DNA of 64,000 nucleotides from Thermoproteota archaeon. GTDB lineage: Archaea > Thermoproteota > Thermoprotei > Thermofilales > B9-G17. Location of the stretch: assembly GCA_029258885.1 (NCBI GenBank), contig JAPDJW010000003.1, forward strand, positions 64,001-128,000, in the 5' to 3' direction. The notes below the pieces were generated by a model. That model was not told where the DNA came from. It did not search any database and worked only from the letters and a program-made list of their open reading frames with translations. A program made the translations under genes and the position numbers. Below are positions 28,141-46,944 of this stretch, in pieces. Position 1 is the stretch's first letter. Every line of letters starts with the position of its first letter.

Positions 28141-29178
28141 ATGCGTTTCATAAGGATCTCCCAAAATTCGGGTTTGAAGGTTTCTATTATAAGCTTAGGG
28201 ACATGGCATTTACCGAGACTTCCTGAAAGAGATGAAGCTGGAGCATATAGAATAGATTTAGAAGAGTTTAGGAAGGTTCTGAAGTACGCCTATGATAATG
28301 GTGTAGTATTCATAGATACTGCTAACAGGTATCATGGAGGCATTTCACCAGTCCCCTTAACGCATGTTGGAAATGCTGAAAGAGTCCTGGGGAAAACAAT
28401 TAAGGATCTCGGGATAGATAGAGAGGAGCTCGTAATAGCTACTAAGGTTGCTGGAGAAATGTCTCCTGGACCTAACGGTAGAGGACTTAGTAGGAAGCAT
28501 ATCATGTGGCAAATTAGGGAAAGCCTGAGGAGGCTTCAAACGGATTACGTCGACATATACTATGCGCACATATACGACCCAGATGTGCCTAAAAGGGAGA
28601 CTATGTCAACATTTAACGATTTGGTGCATCAAGGCTTAGTCAGATATATTGGAATGAGCAATATTCCAGCTTATCACCTCGTTGAATACATCATGATCTC
28701 TGAGAAAGTAGGCTTCGAACCAATAACAGTACTGCAGTATAGATATAATATTTTATCGAGGGAGATAGAGAAGGAAATTATACCGATAGCTAAGCAGTTC
28801 GGCATAGGTATTGCAGCATATTCTCCCCTCTCTCAGGGAATTCTAGCTGGAAAATATATCGACTTCGAAAGCAAGAAGTGGATAATACCTCCACTTTCTA
28901 GGGGAACATACCAGAAATTCGATAGATTCTTTACAAAGGAGAACTTGGAGAAGATTCTAAGGTTAGCTGAGCTGGCCAAAGAGGAGGGACTAACACTACC
29001 ACAGCTAGCAATTGCATGGGTTATAAATATGGGGGAAAGGGTGTGGCATGTTCCCATAGTACCAATAGTAGGAGTTTCTAAACTAAAGCATATGGTAGAA
29101 GCAGTTGAGGCATCAGAAGTAAACTTAACATACGATGTACTCAAAGTAATAGATGAAATATCTCCTCCGCCAAGTTAA
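28141..29178 (+). CDS. aldo/keto reductase
   Basis: SLGTW, IDTANRY, IATK, DYVDIYYAH, IGMSN, YSPLSQG. Confidence 0.95.
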   Translation: MRFIRISQNSGLKVSIISLGTWHLPRLPERDEAGAYRIDLEEFRKVLKYAYDNGVVFIDTANRYHGGISPVPLTHVGNAERVLGKTIKDLGIDREELVIATKVAGEMSPGPNGRGLSRKHIMWQIRESLRRLQTDYVDIYYAHIYDPDVPKRETMSTFNDLVHQGLVRYIGMSNIPAYHLVEYIMISEKVGFEPITVLQYRYNILSREIEKEIIPIAKQFGIGIAAYSPLSQGILAGKYIDFESKKWIIPPLSRGTYQKFDRFFTKENLEKILRLAELAKEEGLTLPQLAIAWVINMGERVWHVPIVPIVGVSKLKHMVEAVEASEVNLTYDVLKVIDEISPPPS

Positions 29179-29336
29179 TTTTCTTAGGATTATATACCGT
29201 CCCTAATCTAATACTAAGCTTACTGTAATAGTATGATGAAGACCTAATAGTGCCGTTACGTAGGTGCATCTTTTCACTGTAGTTTCATGAATGATCCAGC
29301 TAGCTTTCATCGAACGGTAGGAAAGCTTGTGAAGCC

Positions 29337-30188
29337 TTAGCCTAGAATCCTGCCTGCAATATCCTTGATTGTTTCGGGGAATATTCTCCTAGAATACTTT
29401 CTCTCCCACTCTACAACTTCTCTAGAGTTAATATCCATGGTTTCCCTTAGGCGTTTCCCTCTACCGCTACCGTATTCCTCTAAGACTTCCGAAACCCTAT
29501 TAGCTTCATCCCTTAAGCCAAGGTAGGCGAGGAGGTAACGTATCCTCCATAGGAGCGGTCTAAATACGAAGGCTGCATACTTCTCCTCTAACCTATAAAC
29601 CTCAAGCGAATTCTCGCCGTATTCTCCGGTAAATTTCTCCAGCAACCTATTGAACTCCTTAACTTTCAGTAAAGCCTCCTCAAGAACAGCCCTCAAGGTT
29701 TCATCCTTAATACCCCTAACACCGTAGCGTTCAAAATGCATAACTTCAACTGGACGCCTTTTCCCCGGATTCCTCTCCTCTATCCTCGGATAGCCAACAG
29801 GCACGATACAGTTCACCTTAACTTCATCCGGTATGCTCAGTATCTCCCTAACTGCATCCCTTTGGAAGGAGCCGACGATACATCCCTCTAAACCCATCAT
29901 ATGAGCCGCCAGCAGGAGGTTTTCCACTGCACAGGCAACGTTAAACTCCCTACCACCTATAAAAACAAAGATCACACCAGCCTCGCTAATAAATTCTTGA
30001 TTTAAAGAAATCTTCGCCAGCTTTCTCTTAACCTCGGGATCGGTAACTACGATAACCTCCCAGCATGCCATGTTACCGCCAGCAGGAGCCTGACAGGCAG
30101 CCCAAACAAGTTTCTCTATAATCTCCACAGGCAATCTTTCACGTTTAAACTTCCTACAACTTCTTCTCCCTTCCAATACCTCGAACAT
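29337..30188 (-). CDS. nitroreductase family protein with helical C-terminal extension
   Basis: RRSCRKF, QAPAGGN, ENLLLAAH, VPVGYP. Confidence 0.88.
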   Translation of the reverse strand: MFEVLEGRRSCRKFKRERLPVEIIEKLVWAACQAPAGGNMACWEVIVVTDPEVKRKLAKISLNQEFISEAGVIFVFIGGREFNVACAVENLLLAAHMMGLEGCIVGSFQRDAVREILSIPDEVKVNCIVPVGYPRIEERNPGKRRPVEVMHFERYGVRGIKDETLRAVLEEALLKVKEFNRLLEKFTGEYGENSLEVYRLEEKYAAFVFRPLLWRIRYLLAYLGLRDEANRVSEVLEEYGSGRGKRLRETMDINSREVVEWERKYSRRIFPETIKDIAGRILG

Positions 30189-30912: not shown

Positions 30913-33876
30913 ATGTTCAATAAAACTCTGCTCACAGTAATAATTATAGTTCTTATATTACATATTCAACTGCTTCACGCCAAACCTAAGAGCTACAGTG
31001 TTATTATATTTAGAGTGTATGGTGCGCCAGGAAAAATTAAAGCTTCAATAAATATAGAGGGAATAGGGACCTATACGAATATTTCAACAAGCAAAGGAGT
31101 TTTATGCTTCTATATACCGGGAGGCTTTAAAGATAGAATATTATATGCTGAGCTAACTATTGAAGGTAAATGGTATATATCACTACATGGAGAGCCCACC
31201 TATACTAAAGTTTACATAGACGGTAGGCGTAGATGGATTAAAGAGTACCCTGAGGTTCTATATTTAATAAATATTAGCGATTATCCAAGGAATATTTCAA
31301 GGTACTATGTTAAGATCACCCTCATAAAGGATCAGGAATATTCGCTTAATGGAACCACATATACTTTTTATAGGGAAATAGAGTTACATCTTAGGAAGCC
31401 TAGGTTGTTTATAACTAAATCTGTACGCATTACTTTAGATAATCCATTTAGGATAAGGATATTCTTCAGGAATTTAATATTTAATTTAGATAATTCCGTA
31501 TTTGTATGTCCACCTGAAGCCCCTGAGGCTCAAGTCTTATTATCTATGAATGTTCCAGCCAGTTCGGGAACATATTCTGATGAGTACACTTTCAATGTAT
31601 CCTTAATCGACCTACCAACTTATGGAGGATTTTTCGATCTAAGAACATACCTAATTCGTAAGATAGGTAATATTATAGTTGAGAGATATGGGGAGATGGT
31701 CGGCTTAAGTAGGTTCTTAGGCGTAAGCGCAAAGGTATATGAGTATAAGTTACATGCTATTAAGGGTTTACTTAATGCATCATGTTATATGTCAAAGAGC
31801 GGTAGTCAAGGATTTAATACAGCTTTAACAAAGGCTGTTGCCATATACTTCGAGCTAAGAAGTAGCTTAAGACATGCTATGCTTCAATCTTTCCTTTATA
31901 TGCCTATGGTTATTGCCTGCATTTTTATTTTCTCTTCTATAATTTCAAAGATATTTATAGAGAAAAGAAGGTATATTGTTACTGCATTAGTTTTTATTGC
32001 TATATTAATGATAATGTTCACATATTCCTACGAATTTAGGCTCTTCATATATACTTGGAGAGAACTGTCAGAACCTTACTCAAGCCTACAGCTTATACCG
32101 GGAGCAATAAGATATAACTATATTCTTGCTGGAGCTTTTACATTACTTCTCGGACTTTTCGCTTCAGTTTTCTTCTCCTATATAATACTATCTTCGGATA
32201 GACTAAACTATACATATCTCATTTTTAAGCGGAGGAAACTTAGACTAGCGCTTATAATAGTGACTGTTTCCATAGTTTCCTCAGCCATCATAGTTCATGG
32301 AGCTTTCATAAGCGGTCCAGTTGAAAAGGTGAGTTACAGGAGCCAATATTCTGAATACTACTTCATCACGTTTTATGGTTACCTCATTAATAGGAAATAT
32401 ATTCAAACAGTTGATGGAATAGTTCTAAAAGACTTAAGCAAATATACCTATCTTAGCCTGGGAGAATATCTCTGGATCTCTAATTTCTCCAGCGACTCTA
32501 ATGTAGTGGCTAAGAAGATAGTTAAGGTAAGCTATGGCGATAAAACAACTTATTTAAATGCCTATGCACTAAATCTAAGCTTTACAGCTAAATATCTAGA
32601 ATTTTATAGGTATGTTAACGGGTCTATAAACGGTGCGCTGCTTAGTAGCAGGGCATTTAATGAGCTGAACATATCTATTGGTAATTCTATTTCAGTTGAC
32701 GGCATTAGCTACGTAGTTTCAGGTTATTTCAACTATAGCATAATTAACTTGAAGGATTTGGACGGGGACCCGCTTTTCCGTGATCCAGTTAAAGGCGTAT
32801 TTGAAGCTCCTGATCTAATAGTTCCATTAAATGCTATAGACTCTACGTGGGCGATTATAAAAATTAGTATAATACTTAATTCGCTCAACGACATATCTAA
32901 AGCCCTTACGTATATAAGGGAAGGAGGCACAGTCATCAGGGGAATTGCTGAGCCTGATGGTTTTAATATAGTAGGCTATACTTATAGCTGCCTAATAGGC
33001 GGGGAGGGCGGGATAGTGGAAAGGGTATATGTGGATCTTCAGGGCGCGATAGTTGGCGATTGGATCGTACAAGCGGTTATAGTAGCCATATCCGTTCTTA
33101 TGATATCAATTAATGCTTTAGCCAGCTCAATTGAGAGGAGAAGAGAGTTTAAAACAATTTCATGTCTTGGAGCAAATCCAAGCTATATAATCGTTGAAGT
33201 TATATCGGAGGGTGCATCCATAGGTATCATTAGTGGTCTATTAGGATACTTTGTAGGAGAGATACTAGTATTTGCATACTGGAATATTTTAGGGACGGCT
33301 ACAATGTTTCCTCGAGTCCATATGGGTAGCTTAGTGTTAGCTCTACTAGTATCTATGATTTCAACTATTATGGGTTATCTATTGCCAGCTAGGAATGCTA
33401 TAAAAAATATTATTCCAAGCCAGCTAATAGAGAGGAGAAAGGGTAAATTCATCAGGACTTCGAGTAGTGAAATAAAGCTTACGCCTATTATTAAGTTAAA
33501 GTCTGATGAACTAAACATGTTTAAGGATTTCATGTTAACACGTTTTGTTAGATCATTGAATGAAGAGGGATTATACGGAATACGCATATATGACGTTAGG
33601 CTAATAGAGGATGAGAAAGTGCTGAGAATTGTTATGAATGGATATTTCAAGAGCCCATTTACATCCAAGAACATTGAGTTAAATATAATTACGATCCTAA
33701 AGCTTGATGAGGAGATGCTTCAGCCAGTTTTTGTAATAAAGTCAAAATACTTAAACCTAATGTTCTCGAGCGATTTAATAAATTTAATTAATAGAATAAG
33801 GGAGGCTTTAATGGAGTATATAAGTTTCAAGAAGGAAAAGCTTTTCATAAAGAGGATTCCTGTCGGGAATGCCTAA
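30913..33876 (+). CDS. large MacB/FtsX-type permease (987 aa)
   Basis: Signal peptide, ~330-aa ectodomain, TM bundle, MacB-like external domain, SIERRREFKTISCLGANP FtsX motif, cytoplasmic C-tail. Confidence 0.8.
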   Translation: MFNKTLLTVIIIVLILHIQLLHAKPKSYSVIIFRVYGAPGKIKASINIEGIGTYTNISTSKGVLCFYIPGGFKDRILYAELTIEGKWYISLHGEPTYTKVYIDGRRRWIKEYPEVLYLINISDYPRNISRYYVKITLIKDQEYSLNGTTYTFYREIELHLRKPRLFITKSVRITLDNPFRIRIFFRNLIFNLDNSVFVCPPEAPEAQVLLSMNVPASSGTYSDEYTFNVSLIDLPTYGGFFDLRTYLIRKIGNIIVERYGEMVGLSRFLGVSAKVYEYKLHAIKGLLNASCYMSKSGSQGFNTALTKAVAIYFELRSSLRHAMLQSFLYMPMVIACIFIFSSIISKIFIEKRRYIVTALVFIAILMIMFTYSYEFRLFIYTWRELSEPYSSLQLIPGAIRYNYILAGAFTLLLGLFASVFFSYIILSSDRLNYTYLIFKRRKLRLALIIVTVSIVSSAIIVHGAFISGPVEKVSYRSQYSEYYFITFYGYLINRKYIQTVDGIVLKDLSKYTYLSLGEYLWISNFSSDSNVVAKKIVKVSYGDKTTYLNAYALNLSFTAKYLEFYRYVNGSINGALLSSRAFNELNISIGNSISVDGISYVVSGYFNYSIINLKDLDGDPLFRDPVKGVFEAPDLIVPLNAIDSTWAIIKISIILNSLNDISKALTYIREGGTVIRGIAEPDGFNIVGYTYSCLIGGEGGIVERVYVDLQGAIVGDWIVQAVIVAISVLMISINALASSIERRREFKTISCLGANPSYIIVEVISEGASIGIISGLLGYFVGEILVFAYWNILGTATMFPRVHMGSLVLALLVSMISTIMGYLLPARNAIKNIIPSQLIERRKGKFIRTSSSEIKLTPIIKLKSDELNMFKDFMLTRFVRSLNEEGLYGIRIYDVRLIEDEKVLRIVMNGYFKSPFTSKNIELNIITILKLDEEMLQPVFVIKSKYLNLMFSSDLINLINRIREALMEYISFKKEKLFIKRIPVGNA

Positions 33877-35945
33877 CTTTTTAAATACAGGATAATACTC
33901 CTTGGAGGTATTTTCAGTTTTTCACCATTTAACTTAAAGCTGGAATCTTTGTCTGTGTAGTTTATAATCAATATCACCCTATTATCGCCTAACCGCCATG
34001 CGGAGATTAGAACAGGTTTTGTCTTTAATTTAACTACCTCTACTTCGTGGGGCAGCGTGTAGATTGATCTCCTAAGCAACCTTATATCGAGTTCATCTTC
34101 GATTTCAGCGCATAATTTATCAATATATCCTCCGAAGATGTATGGCCTTAAAGCCCCATACATGAGGGCTAAATTAATGAAAAACTTGATTTCTTTAACA
34201 TGTTTCTTAAGTACTTCAAGCGTTAGGTTGTGTATTGTTGGGATACAGCCCCACGAGAGAGCCCTCGAAGTCTCTAATGAAAATTGAAGTTCCTTATCAT
34301 ATAGTGGCTTATAGGAAAGCTCTGGCTTTTTATCTTCAGGCCATAGTTCATCGTAAGGAGGTTTATCCGTAAGCATTGCATAGCTTCCATAGAATAGTAT
34401 GTAGCCATTATATACGTAGTTAAAGAGTGGGATGGGACGCCATTTACCATGTATGGCTCTATACCTGCCGTACCTTTCTGAACTATTATCCAGCACGAGG
34501 AATAAGTGGAATAGATCCAAGTATGCCTCAGAGCACTCCTCGGTTGCTAAAATAACATCTCCTTTAACCTCCCTATATATTTCCTCTATTATGCGTCGAT
34601 ACCCCTCAACCCAGTAATTTCCACCGCCCAAACTGTGACCATGCTCTTTATCATAGCAGAGGGGAGGGGCTGCTGCTGCAATTTGATCCAGATATACTCC
34701 ATCAACTCCGTATTCAAGTACAAGCTTCTTAACCATGCTAACGATCTTGTTCCTCCAAAAGCCTGTATAAGGACACATCACAGCCATTGGGTGATCCATG
34801 AATCTATTATAGTGCTCCTCATACAGTTCACCAGCAGAATTCTTAGTAGCATATTTATATGCCTTTTCATCTGTCCAGCTTTTACACGTTGTATCCCATA
34901 GTCTAGCATTAACGTAGATTATAGTTACGAAGCCCCTTTCACGTAGTTCCTTAACAGTTTCAATAAACTTATCCTCTCCATCTCTGGGAGGAAAGTATTC
35001 GGGGACGTTAACATCGTAGGGATTTGAATGCCACCAGTGCCACATTAGACCTATTCTTCCGTAAGGGGCAAGGTGTCTAAATCTTATCGCTGGATCAGCG
35101 ACTTTATCACATCTGCCCCTATTCCAGATCCAACAAACAACTTCCTTAAGCCTCTCAGGAAAATCGTCTCTATTTATTATCTTGCCCCGCCTACACCACC
35201 ACTGCTTTAAGCCCCATCTCCTATACTTATCCGCAGCATCCATCCAGTTGCCGTCAAAGGGCAGTATATGCATGCTATATGGAATCGTTAATAAGCTACT
35301 ACCAATGCCTTCATCTGGAGGAAAGTATGTAAAACACACACTCTTCCCTGAGGATATTCTTAGCTCCTTAACGTAGCCCTTGCTATCGTCAAGGAACGCT
35401 ACTAATCCGCTTCTCCCAATACTATAGCCGAAGAACTGCATTGATAGGGGAGACGGATACCTGTATTTTAAGTAGTGTTTCTTTAAGGTCTCCTGAGGCT
35501 TAAAGACTTCTATGCCTTGATGATCAGGTATTATCAATGAGGCACTTAAACTATCGCTGTTTCCAAGATGGATAAAAGGATAAGATATTTCGCGTATCTC
35601 GAGACTGGGGGCTTTAGTTACCATTAGCTTAAGCTTTACTCCTCCGTATTGGCTAGGGCTAAGGGAAGCTACTACCTCCTTGATTTCTTTAAATGGAAAC
35701 TCTCTCCATTTTAAATATACTATATCTCTCTCGTGTTCGCATGTAAAATATTCGGCGGATTTCGAATCTACGTCTTTTAGAGATTTTATCAGCCACAGCT
35801 CTTTTTCTTCGTCAATTCTAGATATAGTTACTTTCTTCTCTAGATCCTCTATAGCTCTAATGCATCCCCTATTACCTAGCTCAATACCTATTTTTCCGAA
35901 CCTAAAAAATATATTATTTGAATCTCTTTGAGCTGAATTTATCAA
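33873..35945 (-). CDS. putative glycoside hydrolase (DUF6259-like, TIM barrel)
   Basis: N-terminal beta-sandwich, WHWW...PEYFP, YVNARLWD, GVDGVYLDQ, TEECSE; no signal peptide. Confidence 0.7.
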   Translation of the reverse strand: MINSAQRDSNNIFFRFGKIGIELGNRGCIRAIEDLEKKVTISRIDEEKELWLIKSLKDVDSKSAEYFTCEHERDIVYLKWREFPFKEIKEVVASLSPSQYGGVKLKLMVTKAPSLEIREISYPFIHLGNSDSLSASLIIPDHQGIEVFKPQETLKKHYLKYRYPSPLSMQFFGYSIGRSGLVAFLDDSKGYVKELRISSGKSVCFTYFPPDEGIGSSLLTIPYSMHILPFDGNWMDAADKYRRWGLKQWWCRRGKIINRDDFPERLKEVVCWIWNRGRCDKVADPAIRFRHLAPYGRIGLMWHWWHSNPYDVNVPEYFPPRDGEDKFIETVKELRERGFVTIIYVNARLWDTTCKSWTDEKAYKYATKNSAGELYEEHYNRFMDHPMAVMCPYTGFWRNKIVSMVKKLVLEYGVDGVYLDQIAAAAPPLCYDKEHGHSLGGGNYWVEGYRRIIEEIYREVKGDVILATEECSEAYLDLFHLFLVLDNSSERYGRYRAIHGKWRPIPLFNYVYNGYILFYGSYAMLTDKPPYDELWPEDKKPELSYKPLYDKELQFSLETSRALSWGCIPTIHNLTLEVLKKHVKEIKFFINLALMYGALRPYIFGGYIDKLCAEIEDELDIRLLRRSIYTLPHEVEVVKLKTKPVLISAWRLGDNRVILIINYTDKDSSFKLNGEKLKIPPRSIILYLKS

Positions 35946-38900
35946 TATATTCCCTCCTCATTTCAGGCTTTAGCGATCTCCAAACTAGAAGCTGCTTCCT
36001 AATGGCGTCTATAAAGTTCCTGCTTGATAACACCCACGTATCATATACTCCGCTAAGCCTTCTAAGCATAATATCTAGGAAGTGTCTATCCCCTCTCCTT
36101 ATCACGGTTATAGTGGCCTTAGTTATTATCTTAGCCTCATAGGGGGCAAGCGATAAAACTATGTCAACTGAAGGAACCTCGGGATCGAACTTAACTTCCC
36201 TTATAATAAACTTCTCAACGGTTTCCCTCTTATGAAGCTCGGCATATTCGTACAGGAATAGCAGTGCGCCGCCCGCCTCTAGGATGTTCGTGAATACGAA
36301 TGGAAGAGGTATTTCCCATTCATCGCCTCTTGGCTTTGTGGGGAGCTCCCACTTTCTAGCTAGGGATGGCGTTACAAGCCTAGCGGCCTTGTAAATCGGG
36401 TATATGGAGGGGATTAGGGTTGCTGCCATGGCGAAAATCATCGAGAAGAGCACGGCCATTGAGGTATAGTTTACTATGAATGTCTCTGGAAGTACGTTGA
36501 ATGCCTTAAGTATGTGATTGAAGAGTAGGCCTAGCGTGTATCCCACTAGCGTCGATATGAAGGCGAAAACTAATAACTCGCCTAAGAATAGGAAAATGAC
36601 GCCGGACGGCGGAAGACCTAAGGCTGAATAAATACTCATTTCCCTCTCCCTCATCTTGAGGACATTCAACATGCTGTTTAATATAGTGCCTGATCCGATC
36701 AGCAGAGGTATTAGTATGAATGCAAGCCCCCTAAACTCGTAGGCCGGAAGCCTAGAGAACAGCGAGACCTTGCCATTATAGCTATAGTATACTTCAAGAT
36801 CTAGGCTCATTGCGATAGTTCTGGCGATATCCTCTCCCTCCTCCTTCAGGTATATAGATATGCTCGATACATGTCCACCAAGTCTTTTAACTAAATTATG
36901 AGGAAGTATTAGTACTTCGCTAGCTGATAGGGGTACATAGCTATCGGATCCTCCGGGAACCGATTTCTTGAGGGTTGCAACCATGAGATTTGGATTAAAT
37001 GGCATAATGCTCTCCTGATCGAGATCCAGGTAGCTGTTAATTACATCTGATGCAACTATGCCTACAACCTTAAGCTTCATACCCTGCCACCACACCCAGT
37101 CTCCAACGCTCACGTTAAGTTTCTCGGATACCTTATCCGCCAGGATACATGCATAGTAGTCGTACTCATCGAAGCCCCTGCCCTCTACGATGCTTGACCT
37201 GAACAATTCATTATATTTAAATTCACCCGGTGAGAGGCCTAGGGCAGCATATATCACAGTTTTCTTATCTTTTGCTTCCAAATATGCAAACACCTGGTCT
37301 CCAAATACGGATTGAGGATAGTACCACAGTCTTGGAGCTACCGCGCCTCTATCGCCTACCATCGACCTAAGGTATTCTATTATTGAGTAGCTTAGAAAGT
37401 CCTTAGTAGTCTTCATCCCCTTTCTCATGTATATTCCGTTATACCTGGCTTCTACTGGGAGTTCGGTGCGCTTTAGCGTTACGAAGCTTTCAATTGAGGT
37501 TAGTGAAACCATGCTTAAAACGATGATTATTATTGTTAAGAATAATAATATGCTCAGGAACTTTCTCCTCCTAATATTTCCCATTGCAACGTGTACCGAG
37601 TGGATTATTATTGACGTTCTCTCCCTCTCAACTACGTGATGTTTAAGTATCTTCCTTCTGATCATTGATCCCATTTCTATTGCAGACTTCGTTAACACGA
37701 TACCGACTATTCCGAAGAAGAGAAGGGTCGATAGGCCAAGGTAGGCGATCGGTATATTTGCTACAAGCCTAAGGCTTGGATGAAGGAAATAAAATATCAC
37801 CAGGATGAGTGATGCGATAATTAGTATTGTAAAAAGCCTTTTAAGTCCTTCAAACTGGAGGGTTATTCTCTCTATAAAGAATACGGATGGTATTAGTAGG
37901 AAGAAGAAGAATACGCTTATAATTGCGGGTTCATTAACTAGCCTCATGACCTCACTATAGTATACCATCCCAAGGCTCCACGAGGCTAGGGCATAAGCAT
38001 ATGCTTTACTATATTTCCTTTCCTTCAGACTGGCTAGGCATAGGCTATGATACTCTTCCATGGCCTTTATGTTCTCCTCTAAAGCTATGTTCTCGATCAT
38101 ATTCTTCTTTAGGTTAGAGTATCTGGTTGAGATTATTGTGGCTATGTCGTTGGAGGCATTAATTGCTGAGAGTATTATCTCAGCGCCTCTCTGAACCTTA
38201 TAGCCGTAGCCGTCTGGATGAAGCTGTGACGAATTAATAAGAACTACTGAAGTTCTCTTTTCAGGTCCTACCTTCAATATAAGTGCAAACCTTGAACCCG
38301 GAGGCGTGAATATAGTCGCTATTCCCTCGCTGGGTACATAGACGAAGCCATACCTTATGAACTCGCTTAGGGTGGAGACATCGTATATCATAATCGTTGG
38401 AACCATATTTACCCATGGAGTATTAAGGAATCTAGAATCTAAAAGCACGGGCTCGGATATTCTGGATATATCGTAAAGATCAATGATTGTTGCCGAAGCG
38501 CAGGAGAAGACTACCGTTGTAAGCTGGTATGGATGTGAATCCACTAGACTCCAGAATAGTATTGATTTCGAGCCATACTGACCTAGATCGGGGGCCTTAA
38601 CTATGAGGCCTGTATTCCCATCTAGAAGGTATGCTTCGGTATAATATCCTATACCTTCCTTCTGCAGTATTTGTACTCCGCCAGCTCCCCAAAGCACGGT
38701 CCCGCCTATGGCTGAGCCTACTCCTAGACCATGCACGACAAACCCGCCGGTTTCATTACATTTAACTATGATGTGCATGAAGGGGTATGTTGAGCTTGGA
38801 CTCCTTGTAACCACTGCAAGGGCATATGGAACTCTGTCGTACCAGTTCTTAGTGTAATTAAATTCTAGTACCTTACCGTAGGCTGTTATAAACCCTGCTA

Positions 38901-40365
38901 GCTCGCCAGCCGGGCTATAGAATATTCTACTGGGCTTAACCATGCTCCAGTCAACGGAGAATTCGGGATCGTTCACAAAGCCATAAATTATTGCCGATGA
39001 AGCTAATGCTTGAATCCTAATATTCTCAAGATTGACGTATTTGATATCGCTCTTAGGAGTACCCCATCTATGTCTCAGTGAACCGCAGGTTCTAAGTGCA
39101 AGCCCCATTCCATGGGCCATGGTAACGGGCTCTATATCCAGCATAAATGGCCCAGAGATATCATCCCACCATCCCTCAACCACTAAGCCGTTCTCCACTA
39201 TACTCCCTAAATCTACGCCCAGCTGAGCCGATGCATCCTTAAGGTATTTATCGAAAACGTTTGGTATAACGTATTTCTGATACTTACTTAGAACTTGAAC
39301 GCTACCATAATCGTAGAAGTATCCTCTATAAGTTAATAATAGCCTATTATTATCCGACGATAGATCCAAGCCTACTACTACAAGTAGCTTCCTCTCACCA
39401 CTAATTATATCTTCAGAACCAAAGATAGCTTTCTCCATAAACTCCCTTGCGCCAGCAAGTGCCTGCCAGTGTCCCGAAACGAATACTAACCATAAGGTTC
39501 TCAGTGGTCTATTTTTAGAGAAGTATTCAGCTAAAAGGAGGAGTAGTGAGGGCGAAGTAGCTTCGTCCGCCCCAGGAGCTATAGCTGGGACAACAGACCA
39601 AGTATCGTAGTGTGCAATAACTGCTACTATCTCATCCTTCCTCTCACCCTCTATCTCCGCAACTATAATACTTGACTTTACAATTTCATAGTCCATGTTC
39701 ACGTGTATCCTAATTACCGAGTGATTTTCAGCTAACTGCTTAAGTAAAGCTCCTGTTTCACGATCAACATATAATCTGGGGAAGTACACGGGGGCTGAGG
39801 ATATCTTAGCTATAGCCTCCGGATAGCTGGTTTCATCAGGCTCTATAAATATAACCCCCCTGGCGCCAAACCTTAGCAGGTTTATCCAATTCTTTCCAGA
39901 GTTGAATTCAATCAGGGCTATGGAACCATATATATCCTTGTCGTCCAAATCCTCTAAATCCCCATCCCCAACATAGACAAGCCGTCCCTCAATTCCGGTT
40001 GGAGGAGTTTTACATGTCTGAACGTAGTTAGGCCAAAGAGCATAGGCGTTAAGCCTTAGACTTACGGGTTCAATAACTTCTATGTAAGAGCTCCTGTCAA
40101 GCGGCACCGTAACCTCGTATTCAATGATCCTATAACTCACGTTTATTTCCTTAAGTCGACTTACTATGAAGTTAGCTGCATCATTGCATCCACTGTACCC
40201 CGTAACCCTTGAGCCAAAGCTGGATAGCTTCTCAATATATTCTTTTAGCTTATTTACGTCGATACTATTGGCTAAACCTTCATAATCCATGGGTGGTGTT
40301 GCCTTAACATATGCTTGTAGGGCAAGTAAAAGTATTAGTAGCATTAGAGCTATTCTTGCCTTCAT
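35914..40365 (-). CDS. giant MacB/FtsX-type permease with N-terminal PA + M28-fold ectodomain
   Basis: Signal peptide MKARIAL (ATG 40365 preferred to 40425); SSFGSRVTGY, PA domain, AHYDT, APGADE, SGHW, LDLSSD; REREMSIYSALGL FtsX motif. Confidence 0.85.
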   Translation of the reverse strand: MKARIALMLLILLLALQAYVKATPPMDYEGLANSIDVNKLKEYIEKLSSFGSRVTGYSGCNDAANFIVSRLKEINVSYRIIEYEVTVPLDRSSYIEVIEPVSLRLNAYALWPNYVQTCKTPPTGIEGRLVYVGDGDLEDLDDKDIYGSIALIEFNSGKNWINLLRFGARGVIFIEPDETSYPEAIAKISSAPVYFPRLYVDRETGALLKQLAENHSVIRIHVNMDYEIVKSSIIVAEIEGERKDEIVAVIAHYDTWSVVPAIAPGADEATSPSLLLLLAEYFSKNRPLRTLWLVFVSGHWQALAGAREFMEKAIFGSEDIISGERKLLVVVGLDLSSDNNRLLLTYRGYFYDYGSVQVLSKYQKYVIPNVFDKYLKDASAQLGVDLGSIVENGLVVEGWWDDISGPFMLDIEPVTMAHGMGLALRTCGSLRHRWGTPKSDIKYVNLENIRIQALASSAIIYGFVNDPEFSVDWSMVKPSRIFYSPAGELAGFITAYGKVLEFNYTKNWYDRVPYALAVVTRSPSSTYPFMHIIVKCNETGGFVVHGLGVGSAIGGTVLWGAGGVQILQKEGIGYYTEAYLLDGNTGLIVKAPDLGQYGSKSILFWSLVDSHPYQLTTVVFSCASATIIDLYDISRISEPVLLDSRFLNTPWVNMVPTIMIYDVSTLSEFIRYGFVYVPSEGIATIFTPPGSRFALILKVGPEKRTSVVLINSSQLHPDGYGYKVQRGAEIILSAINASNDIATIISTRYSNLKKNMIENIALEENIKAMEEYHSLCLASLKERKYSKAYAYALASWSLGMVYYSEVMRLVNEPAIISVFFFFLLIPSVFFIERITLQFEGLKRLFTILIIASLILVIFYFLHPSLRLVANIPIAYLGLSTLLFFGIVGIVLTKSAIEMGSMIRRKILKHHVVERERTSIIIHSVHVAMGNIRRRKFLSILLFLTIIIIVLSMVSLTSIESFVTLKRTELPVEARYNGIYMRKGMKTTKDFLSYSIIEYLRSMVGDRGAVAPRLWYYPQSVFGDQVFAYLEAKDKKTVIYAALGLSPGEFKYNELFRSSIVEGRGFDEYDYYACILADKVSEKLNVSVGDWVWWQGMKLKVVGIVASDVINSYLDLDQESIMPFNPNLMVATLKKSVPGGSDSYVPLSASEVLILPHNLVKRLGGHVSSISIYLKEEGEDIARTIAMSLDLEVYYSYNGKVSLFSRLPAYEFRGLAFILIPLLIGSGTILNSMLNVLKMREREMSIYSALGLPPSGVIFLFLGELLVFAFISTLVGYTLGLLFNHILKAFNVLPETFIVNYTSMAVLFSMIFAMAATLIPSIYPIYKAARLVTPSLARKWELPTKPRGDEWEIPLPFVFTNILEAGGALLFLYEYAELHKRETVEKFIIREVKFDPEVPSVDIVLSLAPYEAKIITKATITVIRRGDRHFLDIMLRRLSGVYDTWVLSSRNFIDAIRKQLLVWRSLKPEMRREYIDKFSSKRFK

Positions 40366-40421: not shown

Positions 40422-42389
40422 TCACCAGGGAAGTATCCAGGTAGCCTTAGACAACATAACGATCGACGTGGCTATGCCCACTACGACTGCTTCGCCTGTA
40501 GCTACTCCAGCTACTATAACGCCTCTATTCTTCCTCCACCAGTTCTCCCCGTACATTCTGGCCAGAAATCTGGCGATAATAGCGCCTATAATAAGACTTA
40601 TCGAGTTTGCGGGCAGTATATATGTCCCGGCGACGAGGCCGACTATGGAGAAGGGGAAGTTAAGGATTCTACTTAAAGTATCCCCGATAAACGCTACAGC
40701 TAACACCAGTATGAAGGAGTACAATATGGTGTCAACCTTCACTCCTATCTGTCTGCTAATCCACAACGCGCTTGTAGCTACGCTTACAGGCCACTGTATG
40801 TTCGTGAATGGGTATAGCGACGAGGGTATTGGAGCTATGCTCCAGAAGAAGGATACGTATATGAAGCTAAATACCGTATAGAGTACGACGGCCGTAAAAT
40901 ATGCCTTAAAGAAGTCCTCGGGCCTTGTCTCTGTTAGGAAGGCTGCCTTTATGGTGTTTCCCCATTGGGGCGAAGCTGTGAAAGGTAGGCCAAGCTGGGA
41001 TACTGTCGGAGTTAAACCGCTGAACATGGGGGAGAAGAGCCATGCATCCACCTTAGGATATCCTGAGCCAATTACGGCAAGCTGCCATATATAGGGTATC
41101 GATATCGGATAGCCTGATTCAGCTATGCTTCTTGAAGCAACCAGCGAGTAGGTGAATCCTCCCCCTATAGCGATTAAGATCGCCAGCCATAGGGGGAAGT
41201 CGGGTACTATTAGATGAAACAGCAGTATTGATCCCAGAGATCCTGCTAAATAGAGCGTAGCTAGCGTTTTCAGACTTATATATCCCTTCCTTAAGACGTC
41301 AGTCCTAAGTCTGGATAGGCTCTTAAATGCCGATACAATGCTTCTTCTACTCTTAAATATTGAGAACACGGCTACCGCTAGTGCAAAGCCTATAAATGGA
41401 GTTATCCATACCCTGAGGAAGGATCTTTGGTAAACGGTTGATATGGTCATGCCTCTTGCCCATTCAATAGCCCATTCCTTAAAGTAATTAGCTAAGTAAG
41501 TTCTAGTTAGATAATTGCCGAAAACCCATACAGCTATTGATCCTATAAACATATAGACCACGGTGTGGAATGGAATTAAGAATGCTCCAGTAAATGTTAG
41601 AGGATCTGTTGCGAGGCCTAAGATAGCGCCCGGAAGGATATTTTCGATCCCAAAGGGGCCAGTAGTCAAATCGAGCCATGGAATTGGTATTACAACAATT
41701 CGGGTATTAAATAGACCTAACGAAATCGTCGGAACCCCATAGAGTATTATCGAATATATGGCGCCTAAAATAGCACTTGTTGTGAATATTCTCATCCTAT
41801 CCTCCTCTCTCTCAGCTAATGTAATGCACATCTGGGCTGGAAACTCGGCAAAGGGATAGGGTAGCTTCTCTTCCTCTATGAAGATGTAGGCCATTATGTA
41901 TGCTAACGCAACTTCCTGAATAAGCCATAAAAATATCTGAACCAAATATAGTGAGACTGGTATTATCCACTTTGAATTAAGAAAGCTTCTAACGGCTGTA
42001 GCTGGTAGTCTGGGAACCCACCATTCAGGAATTACTTCACTTAGAGGTTTTCCAGAATAAGGATCGTAGAAGGACTTCGATATGGGCGAAGTGAAGAAGT
42101 AAAATCTATAGACGAACTCTAAAAATGGAGCTCCTAAGAGAACTGGCGCTGCGGCCTGATATATTATGAATATCTCCTGCTTAGTTAGGGGCTTATCCAT
42201 AAGCCTCGAAATTTCTGTAAAAAGTATTGCGGTTATGTATGTTATAGCGCTTGCTAGGATAGCACCTGAAGTAAGCTGAATATATATCGATACCGGGAGT
42301 AGGAGTGAAGCTGCAACAAATATCGCAAGAAAAGATCTAAATGTATATCCTTTTTTTAAAACATATTCTTCACTCACATAATCACCCAT
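40422..42389 (-). CDS. OPT-superfamily-like multipass membrane transporter
   Basis: Over 12 TM; GYTFRS, KQEIF, EEEKLPYP motifs. Confidence 0.75.
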   Translation of the reverse strand: MGDYVSEEYVLKKGYTFRSFLAIFVAASLLLPVSIYIQLTSGAILASAITYITAILFTEISRLMDKPLTKQEIFIIYQAAAPVLLGAPFLEFVYRFYFFTSPISKSFYDPYSGKPLSEVIPEWWVPRLPATAVRSFLNSKWIIPVSLYLVQIFLWLIQEVALAYIMAYIFIEEEKLPYPFAEFPAQMCITLAEREEDRMRIFTTSAILGAIYSIILYGVPTISLGLFNTRIVVIPIPWLDLTTGPFGIENILPGAILGLATDPLTFTGAFLIPFHTVVYMFIGSIAVWVFGNYLTRTYLANYFKEWAIEWARGMTISTVYQRSFLRVWITPFIGFALAVAVFSIFKSRRSIVSAFKSLSRLRTDVLRKGYISLKTLATLYLAGSLGSILLFHLIVPDFPLWLAILIAIGGGFTYSLVASRSIAESGYPISIPYIWQLAVIGSGYPKVDAWLFSPMFSGLTPTVSQLGLPFTASPQWGNTIKAAFLTETRPEDFFKAYFTAVVLYTVFSFIYVSFFWSIAPIPSSLYPFTNIQWPVSVATSALWISRQIGVKVDTILYSFILVLAVAFIGDTLSRILNFPFSIVGLVAGTYILPANSISLIIGAIIARFLARMYGENWWRKNRGVIVAGVATGEAVVVGIATSIVMLSKATWILPW

Positions 42390-42436: not shown

Positions 42437-44449
42437 CTACATGAGCTTAGGCAGACCTATCATGAATGTTGCTAGGAACGCTACTAGGGAGGCGTTTACT
42501 CCGTAGCCTACTAGGTATCCGATTATAAACGGTGTAGCCTTCTCTTCAAACAGTTTTGATCCTCCAATTCTAAGTATTATATATTTGATTATTAGTGAGA
42601 ATATTGGCGGTATCCAAACCCATGTTGTAGTTGGTAATATTAGGAATGCCAATGGATCTATGAAGAACCACGCAAACTTTGTCCTAAGGAAGTAGAGTAT
42701 GAAGGTAATTATTATTCCGCCTATCATTAGACCATATCTCTCAGCCGGATCGAATGCTAATATTGTTGGAGTCCCCTTAACCCATGAATATACTTCAGGC
42801 GATACCCACATATAGAAGGGTGGGCCTGGGGGTCCATTGTTAGCTAAACCTCCGATTGCGTGGTACCACCATATAACTAGCGGTGTAGTTATGATTGCAG
42901 CGGATATAATGGTTATCACTGCGGTGAAGAATAAGTCTCTTCCAAGAGTGTTTGTTGTGGGGCCGAGCCTATATATCTTAAACTGGTGGTGCATTGTAAG
43001 GTTGCTTATTCTCTGCCCGGTGTTAGCTGCACCAGTTACTAAGGTGAATGTAACTAATGCCGTCTGGTTTTCAGCTGGTGGAACTGGAGGCCATGCACCC
43101 ATTATTGCGCCAGCATCATATCTAAACCAGTTAAAGGCATGCCCATAGGGCATGAACTCGAAAGATACTCCCATAAGCCTTGTCCATCCATATAGCATTA
43201 GTATGTGGAGTATCATGAATACAAGTACTACTAGGAATGGAACACCGCTACCTAGTAAGAATATTAGGAACAATATTGATATAGCTACTGTGCCGACTGA
43301 TAGCAGCCTATATGATAAGCCGCTGTCCTCCATTTTAGCATACTCCTTATCCCATAAGGCCCTAAGTATATTCAGGAAGTGTTCCCTGTGGTTATAGACG
43401 ACCCACAGACCTACGCCGAGACCTATACCCCAGATACAGAATAGGTGCCACTTAAATGGACCATATCTTAAACCATAGTACGCGGCATTTGTCTCTACGC
43501 CCGGGCTATAGGGTAGTATTCCCGTGGTAACTCCTACTACTGGATATAGCACTGCGAATATAAACCAGCCTATAATAATTGTTATCAAGAAGTCAGTTGG
43601 CGTAAACATCCATATTAGAATGTCAGTAACTCTAACGTTTCCATAGAAGAAGGCTCCCGGAAGTATACCCTTAGTATAGGGAGTTAAGTCGATTGTGTAA
43701 ACGCCCAGATAGGCGGAAGAAGGTACGGTAGGTATGAAGTATCTTAGGGTATCTAAGAAGGTCATTAGGAATCCGAGCACGAAAGCAACCCAGAATATCT
43801 TAGTAGCCGTATTCTTAAAGTTAAATAGCCAAACCTTACCGTCAACCTCCTTAGTAGCATATTCTATTAGGTAGACGCCTGGAAGTATGCCGGGGAACGG
43901 AAGCTGCTCAACCTCTATCAGCGGTTTTCTAAGCCAGTATCCCCAGAATGTCTCGAACAACATGTAGAGTATAAGGAATAGAGTCCAGTAGATTATATGT
44001 GGCATCCATGCGCCCCAGTCCAGGTATCCGCCATTCCAGAAGTTTTCTAATGCAGTGCCGCTTGGAGAGAAGTATGGTGGTATCATATCCCATACATCCT
44101 TAAATGCCTCAGTATGCCTCATATAAACTGGAATAAGCTGAGCCCAACTGGGTATCTGGCAGGTGCTATAGGCGCCTGACATATATACTCCATATGTGAA
44201 TGTGTTAGCTACCAGGAAGAAGAGGGCGAAGAGTATAGCGTACTCTTGAGGAGCTAGTTTAATCTTATTCCTCAGTAGGTAGAGTATCACTATTACGACT
44301 ATGAAGGGTGGAGGGAACCATACCCTATAAGCCCACCATAGTGTAAGCGATGAGTTAATAATTGACTGGAAGAAGTTTAGTAGTACGACAATGGGTATCA
44401 GTACAATTATCCATGGTTTAAGATAACTCCTTCTAACTTCCTCTCCCAT
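42437..44449 (-). CDS. DUF6785-like multipass membrane protein (OPT-related)
   Basis: Over 12 TM; IEVEQLPFP, FFIDP, IGGSKLFEE; ATG 44449 after GGTG. Confidence 0.7.
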   Translation of the reverse strand: MGEEVRRSYLKPWIIVLIPIVVLLNFFQSIINSSLTLWWAYRVWFPPPFIVVIVILYLLRNKIKLAPQEYAILFALFFLVANTFTYGVYMSGAYSTCQIPSWAQLIPVYMRHTEAFKDVWDMIPPYFSPSGTALENFWNGGYLDWGAWMPHIIYWTLFLILYMLFETFWGYWLRKPLIEVEQLPFPGILPGVYLIEYATKEVDGKVWLFNFKNTATKIFWVAFVLGFLMTFLDTLRYFIPTVPSSAYLGVYTIDLTPYTKGILPGAFFYGNVRVTDILIWMFTPTDFLITIIIGWFIFAVLYPVVGVTTGILPYSPGVETNAAYYGLRYGPFKWHLFCIWGIGLGVGLWVVYNHREHFLNILRALWDKEYAKMEDSGLSYRLLSVGTVAISILFLIFLLGSGVPFLVVLVFMILHILMLYGWTRLMGVSFEFMPYGHAFNWFRYDAGAIMGAWPPVPPAENQTALVTFTLVTGAANTGQRISNLTMHHQFKIYRLGPTTNTLGRDLFFTAVITIISAAIITTPLVIWWYHAIGGLANNGPPGPPFYMWVSPEVYSWVKGTPTILAFDPAERYGLMIGGIIITFILYFLRTKFAWFFIDPLAFLILPTTTWVWIPPIFSLIIKYIILRIGGSKLFEEKATPFIIGYLVGYGVNASLVAFLATFMIGLPKLM

Positions 44450-44622
44450 AAGAAACACCAATGTAAAATAAAATTTTAAGTATTTAAGTTTGGATATTTT
44501 TATTAATCAAAAAATTTTTTTAAAATTTAAAAATATTTATATTCAAGAAAATAATATAAAATATGGTTTTAAATTTGCTTTAGAATAAAGATTTAGCATT
44601 AACTTGGAATTCTATTATTGAG

Positions 44623-44861: not shown

Positions 44862-45305
44862 GTGGAGTGTATGGAGTCTGATAAAACCTTTGAAGCTATT
44901 GCTCATCCATTAAGGATAAAGATATTGAAGTTGCTGGCAGAGAGACCTATGAGTTTCTCCGAGTTAAAGAGGAGGCTTGGAATAAAGAGTAGCGGTAAGC
45001 TGGATTTCCACTTGAAGAAACTAGACAACTTAATAGTTTTAGATGAAGATGGAAAATACACGTTGACTAGAGAGGGCTATGCGGCACTACAGGCTATTAT
45101 CACAATTAAAAGGTATGGATGGCAGAAGAGAGCCTTCATATTAAATACAGCAGTCTACATTGCGGTTATGATCTATACAGAGTGTGTTATAGTGTGGAGA
45201 GGATTTAGCCCGCTATACGTTGCTGTAATGGTGCTTACATCACTCTGGTACGTATACTACTTCTATGTATCTATTGTGAAGAGGAAGGTCTTTAAAGTAT
45301 GTTAG
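44862..45305 (+). CDS. ArsR-type HTH regulator with two C-terminal TM helices
   Basis: AIAHPLRIKILKLL...SFSELKRRLG...LDFHLKKL, then hydrophobic tail. Confidence 0.85.
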   Translation: MECMESDKTFEAIAHPLRIKILKLLAERPMSFSELKRRLGIKSSGKLDFHLKKLDNLIVLDEDGKYTLTREGYAALQAIITIKRYGWQKRAFILNTAVYIAVMIYTECVIVWRGFSPLYVAVMVLTSLWYVYYFYVSIVKRKVFKVC

Positions 45306-45346
45306 GGGGCGAGTTTTCGTAGGCTGATGAAGGGGGTGCTGGAGGC

Positions 45347-46273
45347 ATGGGGATGAGGGTTATTGAGGTTGAAAATTTAGCTAAAGAGTTCAATGGGAGA
45401 ACAGTGCTACGTGGGATAACTTTCCACGTTAGGAGGGGTGAGGTCTTTGGTCTACTTGGACCTAATGGTTCGGGTAAAACAACGACGATGAGGATAATTC
45501 TTGGATTGCTTAAGCCGACTTCGGGGAAGGTACGTGTTCTCGGCGGTTCGCTGGCGGACGACGCCAAGCTTAGGAGTAGAGTCGGCGTAGTGTTGGAGGG
45601 TGATGGCTTGTTTACTAGACTTTCAGCCTATGAAAATCTCGACTTTTACGCTAGAATCTACGGGTTAAGGGACGGTGTGGAGAGAAGAGAGAGGATTAGG
45701 GAGCTACTGGAGCTCGTAGGCTTATATGATGTGAGAAATATGAAGGTGGGTTATTTTTCCAAGGGTATGAGGAGGAGGCTTGCGCTAGCTAGAGCACTAA
45801 TTCACTATCCTGAAGTATTGCTTCTCGATGAGCCGACTTCTGGTTTAGACCCTGAGGCGAAGGCTATGGTAAGGGATCTGGTGATCAAGCTCTCTAGGGG
45901 TGATGGAGTAACAGTTCTCTATACATCCCATGACCTGAATGAGGTTGAAAAAGTATGCTCTAGGATAGCAGTGCTAGTGAAAGGTAGGATAATAGTTCAA
46001 GGTGTGCTTAACGACCTACTTGAGGAATGTAGCGGACAGGTAATGGAGGTATGTTTCACTAGTAGTGATGATGCGTCTAAAGCTTTCGAGTACTTGAGGA
46101 TGTTGGACTATGTACCAGAATGCAGGATGTATGGGAAAACTGTGCATCTGGTAACACTTGGCAATACACGCAGGCTTCTAAGAGACCTTGTGGAAATGAA
46201 CCTTGGAGTTGAGGAGGTAAGGAGGGTAAGGAGGACTCTCGAGGAGATATATCTAGAGCTTGTTAGGAGGTGA
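45347..46273 (+). CDS. ABC exporter ATP-binding subunit
   Basis: GPNGSGKT, FSKGMRRR, LLDEP, TSH. Confidence 0.95.
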   Translation: MGMRVIEVENLAKEFNGRTVLRGITFHVRRGEVFGLLGPNGSGKTTTMRIILGLLKPTSGKVRVLGGSLADDAKLRSRVGVVLEGDGLFTRLSAYENLDFYARIYGLRDGVERRERIRELLELVGLYDVRNMKVGYFSKGMRRRLALARALIHYPEVLLLDEPTSGLDPEAKAMVRDLVIKLSRGDGVTVLYTSHDLNEVEKVCSRIAVLVKGRIIVQGVLNDLLEECSGQVMEVCFTSSDDASKAFEYLRMLDYVPECRMYGKTVHLVTLGNTRRLLRDLVEMNLGVEEVRRVRRTLEEIYLELVRR

Positions 46274-46944
46274 ACTCAAATATGATAGGAGTTATTGTAT
46301 GGAAAGAGCTTAAGGAGAGTACGAGGGACAGAAACCTACTATCCAGTATAGTGGGCGTAGCAATACTATTAATGCTTTTAAATTTATCGTCGAGATTCCC
46401 AACCGTCAGTGTGGAGTTTCTTGTACTCTATATGGCGCCGTGTATAGGCGTTTTCATAGGATTTAGTATGAGCAGTAGATTTGTAAGGGAGAAGCGGGAG
46501 GGAACTATAGAGACTATGCTCTGTACTCCGCTGACGCTGAAAGAACTATGGCTTGGTAAAGTAATTGGACTAGCATTACCATCATATGCCGTTACCTTAA
46601 CCTCAATGCTTATTCTAGCATATTTTAAAGGCTATATCATGAAGGAGGCTATAACGATATATTTAACGCTGGCAGTGCCCATCCTCATAGCATCGGTTAT
46701 TGGTTTACTCGGATTCCTCTATTACGTCCTAGGTATGAGGCAAATACAAGCACTTAACTACCTAGTATTCCTTACATTATTCACATTATTCTTCGCATTA
46801 ACTAGGAGCTTAACGAGAGGGGTCATCACTATAACGTGGGAGATTATAGGAGCTGTGCTGGCCTTCTCAGCAATGATTCTGTACATAGTAGCCTATCTGA
46901 TAACTCGCCTAGACAAGGAGAGGATAGTAACCACACTAGACTAA
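46270..46944 (+). CDS. ABC-2 type exporter permease
   Basis: EKREGTIETMLCTP...GK motif; 6 TM. Confidence 0.9.
   Translation: MNSNMIGVIVWKELKESTRDRNLLSSIVGVAILLMLLNLSSRFPTVSVEFLVLYMAPCIGVFIGFSMSSRFVREKREGTIETMLCTPLTLKELWLGKVIGLALPSYAVTLTSMLILAYFKGYIMKEAITIYLTLAVPILIASVIGLLGFLYYVLGMRQIQALNYLVFLTLFTLFFALTRSLTRGVITITWEIIGAVLAFSAMILYIVAYLITRLDKERIVTTLD

Follow-up and report, generated by a model that had tools for sequence, protein, structure and literature searches.

A catalytically dead M28 ectodomain on a MacB/FtsX-type subunit points to a possible ABC importer class with OPT-like and DUF6785 partners

We analysed a 64,000-nt window of a Thermoproteota archaeon genome (assembly GCA_029258885.1, contig JAPDJW010000003.1, positions 64,001 to 128,000), whose reverse strand encodes a 1483-amino-acid (aa) M28-bearing MacB/FtsX large subunit, here labelled BIG. 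The initial annotation had read its ectodomain as a receptor-like pseudo-peptidase on a permease, and this description holds: judging by the alignments, three of the six canonical catalytic or ligand positions are lost family-wide, and a MacB/FtsX unit lies in the same chain. From these sequence changes, the ectodomain almost certainly has no ordinary peptidase activity. The main value of the finding lies in the system round the pseudo-peptidase rather than in the M28 domain, as a dead M28 domain by itself is of a known kind (transferrin receptor, nicastrin, nicalin) and the surrounding system matches no described transporter. BIG, an OPT-like protein, a DUF6785 protein, a small FtsX protein, ATPases and a PqqD-like protein very probably form one system. 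We tentatively read it as an undescribed ABC importer class, in which a type VII motor capped by the dead M28 domain would power an OPT-fold heterodimer whose exchangeable DUF6785 half sets the substrate.

Ectodomain fold and lost catalytic residues

BIG matches Peptidase_M28 (PF04389, E 1.5e-9), MacB_PCD and FtsX in Pfam, and the profile of its ectodomain matches the PA+M28 aminopeptidase 2EK8 at E 1.3e-33. A model of residues 22-500 built with 114 homologues (pLDDT 97, pTM 0.94) superposed on 2EK8 with Z 29.3 (root-mean-square deviation (rmsd) 8.5, 386 residues aligned) and on the Aeromonas aminopeptidase (AAP) 1RTQ with Z 29.0 (rmsd 2.5, 267 aligned), so that Pfam, profile, model and structure searches agree on an M28 alpha/beta fold. 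The inserted PA domain, also noted initially, was recovered both in the model and by profile matches to PA-containing M28 proteins and to the PA-only ZNRF3. BIG shares fold and PA insert position (Z 29) with the PA+M28 aminopeptidases (Aneurinibacillus AM-1 2EK8, B. subtilis YwaD 6HC6, P. aeruginosa PaAP and Aeromonas AAP 1RTQ) and partly keeps their Zn2-side residues, but it lacks the general base and both Zn1 ligands, is fused to an 8-transmembrane (TM) transporter subunit and, judging by the model, places its PA domain differently (whole-chain rmsd 8.5, core rmsd 2.5).

The metal ligands of the Aeromonas enzyme are H97, D117, E152, D179 and H256, with E151 as general base; the aligned residues of BIG are H252, E268, W300, D334 and G435, with H299 at the general-base position. 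The AHYD (H252, D254) and GADE (D267/E268) motifs are present as annotated, the bridging Asp being replaced by Glu (E268) with a one-residue deletion after it, and D334 has to be added as a third ligand that is kept. SGHW (297-300) indeed replaces the EE motif, since H299 and W300 align on the EE of 2EK8. HRWGTP exists as well, at residues 432-437 (39055-39072), although this lies beyond the annotated range, which stops at residue 335, and the distal ligand position within it is G435 (WGTP aligned to YHTP), not H432. H299, W300 and G435 thus stand where the general base and the two Zn1 ligands should be, while this copy has H252, E268 and D334 at the Zn2 positions. H299 also aligns with the His that occupies the first E position in 2ANP, a chain of the Aeromonas aminopeptidase, and the title of a study of the E151H mutant of the Aeromonas enzyme calls it 'functional' (PMID 16142900, cited in PMC3426542 and PMC4320195). 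A His at 299 is therefore no proof of inactivity by itself, and the absence of both Zn1 ligands counts for more.

The EE pair was absent from all 329 distinct homologous ectodomains (one has Asp at 300) and from all eight paralogues within the source genome, so its loss is not due to chance or sequencing error, and a frameshift or sequencing artefact behind SGHW is ruled out. H299 is present in 279/329 ectodomains, with residue 300 aromatic in most, and in a dereplicated set of 197 non-bacterial (mostly archaeal) and 18 bacterial ectodomains it is kept in 162 of the 197, with Y, F or W instead in 29. Position 268 is acidic in 190/197 non-bacterial and 0/18 bacterial sequences, and the Zn2 trio (the H252, E268 and D334 positions) is kept in 118/197 and 0/18, respectively. 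On a tree of 91 leaves, at least 16 changes of H252 were counted, and loss of this residue shows no correlation with loss of D334 (Fisher p 0.66, kinship uncorrected). These variations, together with the rarity of His at 435 (5/197 non-bacterial sequences), speak against the rewired His-rich metal site that had been offered as an alternative, and a version using H432 was rejected, as this residue occurs in 6/197. As far as aligned residues tell, the old pocket is lined with aromatics, the pattern of a pseudo-enzyme rather than of a new His-rich site.

This copy may still bind one residual metal. A one-metal centre (H252, E268, D334, perhaps H299) that acts on the transported substrate slowly or by altered chemistry, such as that of an amidase, deacetylase or cyclase, would agree with the presence of all four residues here and in 94 of the 197 non-bacterial sequences, with the 'functional' E151H enzyme of that title and with the alignment of H299 to 2ANP. 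We consider such chemistry very unlikely, given that both Zn1 ligands are gone, that H252 is repeatedly lost independently of D334, that bacteria lack the whole trio and that H299 is often Tyr or Phe.

We saw no stand-alone or EE-bearing family member. Shorter matches were mostly partial genes, and archaeal matches of 588-604 aa are other, soluble PA+M28-like proteins outside transporter loci and triads (L135:8047-9861, L136:8495-10309, L137:8037-9845, L138:7909-9675; G and L numbers are our labels for other genomes and loci, and G000 is the genome containing the window), in which a pattern search did not find the canonical HxD motif. Bacterial BIG variants of 1750-1970 aa have a large insertion in the PA region (L112:6251-11491, L117:8712-13973, L113-L115), and those of L113-L115 lack H299.

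Transferrin receptor 1 likewise has an inactive PA+M28 ectodomain with EE lost and Gly at the distal His, but it is a type II single-pass endocytic receptor with a helical dimerisation domain and no transporter fusion, and the catalytic loss in the two is probably convergent. Nicalin and nicastrin also place an inactive M28-like ectodomain on a membrane complex; they differ from the polytopic BIG in their single C-terminal TM helix and in complexes that serve protein biogenesis or proteolysis. Of the solved chains, only nicalin can be aligned without a break along the entire M28 core (profile positions 20-233 of 246), and like BIG it lacks EE and has the insert after the HYD motif (xVxP, window 39580-39620), but its M28 profile score (50 bits; nicastrin 27) is no better than that of active aminopeptidases (AAP 47-54). 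Bacterial members read GAE(S/N/M)A. PF05450 (nicastrin/nicalin) does not match BIG and is matched weakly by 16/49 members (best E 8e-5). Neither nicalin nor nicastrin was among the best 50 structure-search rows, which does not exclude kinship. That the BIG pseudo-peptidase is a prokaryotic sister of nicalin and nicastrin is a lead from these alignments, and a rather unlikely one.

The MacB/FtsX motor and its partners

BIG is a polytopic chain of the MacB/FtsX type, in which a signal peptide or anchor is followed by the PA+M28 domain, a beta-sandwich region, a helical stalk, three extra TM helices, a MacB/FtsX protomer and a cytosolic C-terminal domain. Residues 485-1483 were modelled at pLDDT 90. 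The protomer consists of a connecting helix, TM1, a periplasmic core domain and TM2-4 with a coupling helix, and a structure search of the model matched the core to the MacB periplasmic domain with Z 14. The first beta-rich domain has a weak likeness to carboxypeptidase-regulatory/transthyretin-type sandwiches (Z 8-9, near background), and fold matches of the C-terminal domain (1336-1483) were near background only. A tandem MacB pseudo-dimer was rejected, as the three extra TM helices lack the coupling-helix motif and Pfam finds one FtsX stretch; in the model, the stalk and these helices form a candidate dock for the OPT-like subunit.

By fold, the BIG system is a member of the type VII ABC proteins (MacB, LolCDE, FtsEX, HrtBA, BceAB, YtrEF), with which it shares the MacB periplasmic core, TM1-4, the coupling helix and LolD/MacB-type ATPases. 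None of the known members is an importer, to our knowledge. By analogy with LolCE, the transmembrane domains likely form a heterodimer, which would differ from those of its relatives in that the partner protomer, a small FtsX of 190-230 aa, lacks a periplasmic domain and that two distinct ATPases serve it. BIG further adds the stalk, three TM helices, cytosolic domain and M28 domain to the type VII plan, and is linked to OPT-like proteins and catabolic genes.

The OPT-like protein matches PF03169 (E 8e-12, 45 bits against a cut-off of 25.8), and profile comparison identified it and the DUF6785 proteins, subunits of about 670 aa with 10-13 predicted TM helices, as full-length homologues (100%, E 2.9e-39). 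It occurs at about 1:1 with BIG. Across 46 loci of archaea and Latescibacterota, the OPT-like gene accompanies BIG in 40 and the DUF6785 gene does so in 25, and an ATPase is usually not adjacent. LolD-type ATPases, small FtsX and a protein that we call c9 do lie beside the core genes at L045/L046/L152 (two complete genomes) and at the bacterial L120, as does the PqqD-like protein at L045/L046 and L118, and orthologues of each of these exist elsewhere in the source genome. The ATPases encoded in trans, the small FtsX and the PqqD-like protein had escaped the initial annotation. The ATPases are 65-79% identical across archaea and bacteria and score best against LolD/MacB (237 bits), with ECF well behind (~156 bits). 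The putative cognate LolD/MacB-type ATPase of BIG is thus encoded in trans in the source genome; the conclusion once drawn from gene neighbourhoods, 'no ATPase, hence secondary transporter', was dropped when these in-trans ATPases were found.

The c9 protein, a conserved soluble protein of 300 aa that adjoins OPT or BIG at several loci (G000:C8:14961-15896 (L162:461-1396), L045:16085-16936, L120:4861-5832), has no Pfam or NCBIfam match. The PqqD-like gene of the source genome (G000:C2:253424-253864, L161:424-864) has no genes for ribosomally synthesised and post-translationally modified peptides nearby. Two complete genomes of 1.57-1.58 Mb, probably Staphylothermus (G046, G198; L045/L046/L152), hold all parts and a secreted GH57 at one locus. 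One family of archaea encodes a 339-aa membrane protein (L044:7861-8880, L058:12297-13316) and c9 after the large gene; its OPT and DUF6785 genes lie at another place, next to PqqD and small FtsX (L148).

Among 301 genomes of the phylum, 57 were BIG-positive, and of these 52 carried the OPT-like protein, 54 DUF6785 and 55 small FtsX; the ATPase clade was present in 56, in most cases with two genes, and the PqqD-like protein in 55. The corresponding totals over all 301 genomes were 53, 58, 67, 69 and 59; outside BIG-positive genomes these families are rare. BIG is present in 52 of the 53 OPT-positive genomes, and the remaining one has a contig-cut copy. Four genomes with the motor and only M28-less BIG paralogues gave no OPT, DUF6785 or PqqD match, indicating that the M28 domain goes with the OPT module, and the PqqD-like protein was not found in motor-only genomes. 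This simpler, motor-only version with M28-less large subunits is seen at L140-L143 and L173-L179 (G080, G206, G266, G272, G278). The source genome contains eight BIG/OPT/DUF6785 triads and, in addition, five M28-less BIG paralogues (window 30913-33876; G000 C2:99812-102685, C3:29551-32688, C14:9067-11991, C2:159914-163969), one of which has 1351 aa and a different long N-terminal region. The paralogue in the window matches the profile of the BIG C-terminal part (hhalign 99.3%, E 1e-20, 635 columns), and its existence marks the N-terminal ectodomain as a swappable module. BIG was also found in 48/61 Latescibacterota genomes and among partial records under the names Poribacteria, Brocadiia, Bacteroidota and Hodarchaeota; within the same tentative joint reading, the proposed importer class would be common to Thermoproteota/Bathyarchaeia, Latescibacterota and other bacteria.

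This distribution bears on whether the parts are co-regulated yet mechanically separate, with OPT/DUF6785 as a proton-driven carrier and BIG/FtsX/ATPase as a sensor or assembly factor. The motor does occur alone in some genomes; YS1, a solved OPT-family member, is a self-sufficient, proton-driven dimer with an elevator core (PMC9691689); and the Staphylothermus OPT gene Smar_1400 was interpreted as a stand-alone secondary transporter for peptides (PMC2678158, the only mention found). We nevertheless hold such a separation to be highly improbable, as an OPT-like subunit without BIG was not found in the 301 genomes and the two are adjacent in 40/46 loci, a genomic dependence that argues against stand-alone function. 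By gene position, Smar_1400 is itself probably the OPT-like subunit of the G198 locus. Known OPT/YSL proteins (HvYS1, Smar_1400) match PF03169 alike, and the two homologous subunits described here could form the dimer of that family, but the known ones are stand-alone proton-coupled homodimers, whereas in the present system two different subunits go with an ABC motor.

Substrate specificity and the proposed mechanism

DUF6785 genes far outnumber BIG. Four archaea have 39, 21, 19 and 34 DUF6785 matches beside 1, 2, 2 and 1 BIG copies, and five Latescibacterota genomes have 36, 23, 16, 26 and 21 beside 4, 4, 2, 3 and 1; each of these five has a single small FtsX and 1-3 OPT loci. Most of the DUF6785 matches are full length, and some are fragments. 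In the near-complete G057, orphan DUF6785 copies are scattered singly, with alpha-mannosidase (GH38), alpha-fucosidase (GH29), GH4, GH3, esterase and DegT aminotransferase genes as neighbours. The triads of the source genome have differing catabolic flanks: GH94 with a glucoamylase/DUF3131 protein; GH130; GH57 with a maltose-forming amylase; melibiase with GalT; or AnmK, GH3, MurQ-like SIS protein, NamZ and amidase. Identity between paralogues of this genome is 0.37 for the M28 core, 0.33 for PA, 0.28 for whole BIG and 0.23 for DUF6785. As a single-copy domain cannot serve as a specific receptor for 20-40 carriers, DUF6785 is the better specificity candidate and M28 the shared part.

Two triads at G000:C1:190331-225044 (L007-L009) are surrounded by a peptidoglycan-scavenging set (secreted Amidase_2, AnmK, GH3, MurQ-like SIS protein, NamZ), suggesting an archaeon that feeds on bacterial cell walls. 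Another triad adjoins a secreted peptidase C25-like protein (G000:C3:265511-267376, L012:5512-7377), so some copies may import peptides.

The M28 domain could still be a substrate-specific receptor, whose aromatic former active site under the PA lid captures an oligosaccharide or peptide and passes it to OPT/DUF6785. W256, E412, T426 and R431 are conserved round the old pocket along with H299 (279/329) and the mostly aromatic residue 300, each of the eight source-genome loci owns a BIG and catabolic genes, BIG with M28 is the form that accompanies the OPT module, and the same replacement of His by Gly is seen in the transferrin receptor (YLGT vs YWGT). Set against this are the 1-2 BIG copies alongside 19-39 DUF6785 matches, pocket residues common to paralogues with very different presumed substrates, and an M28 core that is well conserved across differing loci, more so than DUF6785, and we regard a specific receptor as unlikely. 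The substrate receptor proposed in the initial annotation is accordingly disfavoured as specificity determinant; its other proposal, a receptor for partners, fits best in the form of a scaffold, though only as something we infer. We think it reasonably likely that the M28 domain is a scaffold rather than a specific receptor.

In group II ECF transporters, one low-copy energising module with two different ATPases serves many scattered membrane subunits. The BIG system resembles them in its logic, with many scattered, presumably exchangeable DUF6785 proteins per energising module, but it has no T component, its membrane partner is of the FtsX type and its ATPases of the LolD type, the expanded subunit is an OPT-like protein of ~670 aa instead of a 6-TM S component, and the neighbouring genes suggest glycans, not vitamins. 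On balance we lean towards an ATP-driven, ECF-like importer with a type VII ABC motor and swappable OPT-fold carriers, mostly for glycans, with DUF6785 giving specificity. BIG and small FtsX would form a type VII transmembrane dimer powered by two ATPases, the OPT-like subunit would dock on the stalk and extra TM helices of BIG, and a DUF6785 subunit, exchangeable and the seat of specificity, would pair with it to complete an OPT-type dimer. ATP-driven mechanotransmission would then move the OPT-type elevator and import oligosaccharides and other solutes. The dead PA+M28 domain would be a shared extracellular cap or scaffold over the motor subunit, and may bind partners (its own stalk, the outer face of OPT/DUF6785, secreted hydrolases) or hold substrate non-specifically.

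When BIG residues 730-969 were modelled in complex with the OPT-like protein, support was weak, at 0.32 against 0.00 for the best control, with agreement between runs of at least 59% and partner pLDDT of at least 63. Of 80 solved complexes, 58 attained this mark, as did 2 of 110 mismatches; among those reaching it, scores of 0.60 or below belonged to only seven solved complexes and to both mismatches.

Several observations weigh against the importer. We know of no OPT protein that needs an ATPase. A coupling of motor and OPT is unprecedented, as type VII ABC proteins are mechanotransducers that convert ATP binding into extracytoplasmic movement and carry no substrate across the membrane (PMC5985334), and YS1 is proton-driven (PMC9691689). 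The elevator fold rests on the Pfam match and the OPT/DUF6785 homology, since profiles of OPT-like and DUF6785 proteins had no match among PDB sequences. One of the three BIG-OPT complex runs scored 0.07, and the M28 domain lies outside the modelled stretch. H299 and the aromatics at 256/299/300/434 are well conserved and could mark a real ligand pocket, and the 8:8:8 ratio of BIG, OPT and DUF6785 in the source genome is also compatible with locus-specific M28 receptors. Many orphan DUF6785 genes of G057 adjoin housekeeping genes, and the co-occurrence comes from related, many of them incomplete genomes that are not phylogenetically independent.

An envelope or protein-biogenesis machine for secretion, extraction or anchoring, with M28 acting on proteins as nicalin, nicastrin or GPAA1, would accord with the extracytoplasmic work of type VII motors (PMC5985334), the nicalin alignment with its common xVxP insert, the weak PF05450 matches, the secreted, C-terminally anchored proteins at several loci, the co-occurring PqqD-like peptide-binding fold and the motors without OPT. 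Uptake is nonetheless indicated by the DUF6785 expansion beside cytosolic glycosidases and by substrate-coherent clusters, OPT-family proteins are importers, and structure searches put canonical aminopeptidases first, which makes such a machine improbable in our view.

Features of the locus and biological meaning

Table 1. Positions of BIG, its parts and its neighbours in the window
Feature	Coordinates	Strand	Basis
BIG, 1483 aa, starts MKARIA	35914..40365	-	Open reading frame, Pfam, hydropathy, models
Hydrophobic N-terminal signal peptide or anchor, residues 1-22	40300..40365	-	Sequence, hydropathy; cleavage only putative
M28-fold ectodomain with PA insert, residues 23-470	38956..40299	-	PF04389, 2EK8 profile, model
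PA insert, ~residues 88-222, boundaries approximate	39700..40104	-	2EK8 alignment, profile, model
H252-Y-D254, family-variable first Zn2 ligand position with invariant structural Asp	39604..39612	-	Alignments
E268 at bridging-Asp position	39562..39564	-	Alignment counts
H299-W300 in place of general-base Glu and Zn1-ligand Glu	39466..39471	-	2EK8 alignment, profile
D334, kept Zn2-ligand position, GLD motif	39364..39366	-	Alignments
G435 in place of distal Zn1 His ligand	39061..39063	-	WGTP aligned to YHTP
Two beta-rich extracellular domains, residues 485-730	38176..38913	-	Model
Helical stalk with the three additional TM helices, residues 731-900	37666..38175	-	Hydropathy, model
MacB/FtsX (type VII ABC) protomer	36361..37623	-	Pfam, MacB profile E 1.6e-17, model
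Conserved cytosolic alpha/beta C-terminal domain, residues 1336-1483	35917..36360	-	Paralogue comparison, model
OPT-like membrane protein, 655 aa, upstream of BIG	40422..42389	-	PF03169 E 8e-12
DUF6785/DUF6784 membrane protein, 674 aa, upstream of BIG	42437..44461	-	Pfam, homology to OPT-like subunit
DUF6259 glycoside-hydrolase-like protein, downstream, overlaps BIG stop	33873..35945	-	PF19773 E 8e-98, weak GHL6
M28-less BIG paralogue, 987 aa, convergent with operon	30913..33876	+	hhalign

The DUF6259 protein has no signal peptide and is a candidate cytosolic catabolic enzyme of the BIG locus. On the opposite strand, 44862-46944 encodes a small HTH regulator, an ABC ATPase and a 6-TM permease that are not conserved with the BIG system; the ATPase and permease (45347-46944) were considered as system parts and dropped, being unlinked at other loci. 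Aldo/keto reductase and nitroreductase genes occupy 28141-30188, and like oxidoreductases recur by the L044 and L058 loci. A plasmid search gave no match, and a sigma-70 promoter scan is uninformative for an archaeal host.

The open literature that we searched (subscription journals and TCDB lie outside it) contained no description of the system, of its DUF6785, DUF6784 or DUF6259 proteins or of a prokaryotic nicalin. The system is testable, since a complete genome, probably of the cultured Staphylothermus marinus, carries all parts at one locus. If the reading is true, a new importer architecture would be added, and DUF6785/DUF6784, with up to 39 matches per genome, would gain a function. One motor would then provide dozens of glycan uptake specificities, which would explain glycan uptake by abundant uncultured degraders, and DUF6785 neighbourhoods would become a map of the organisms' diets.

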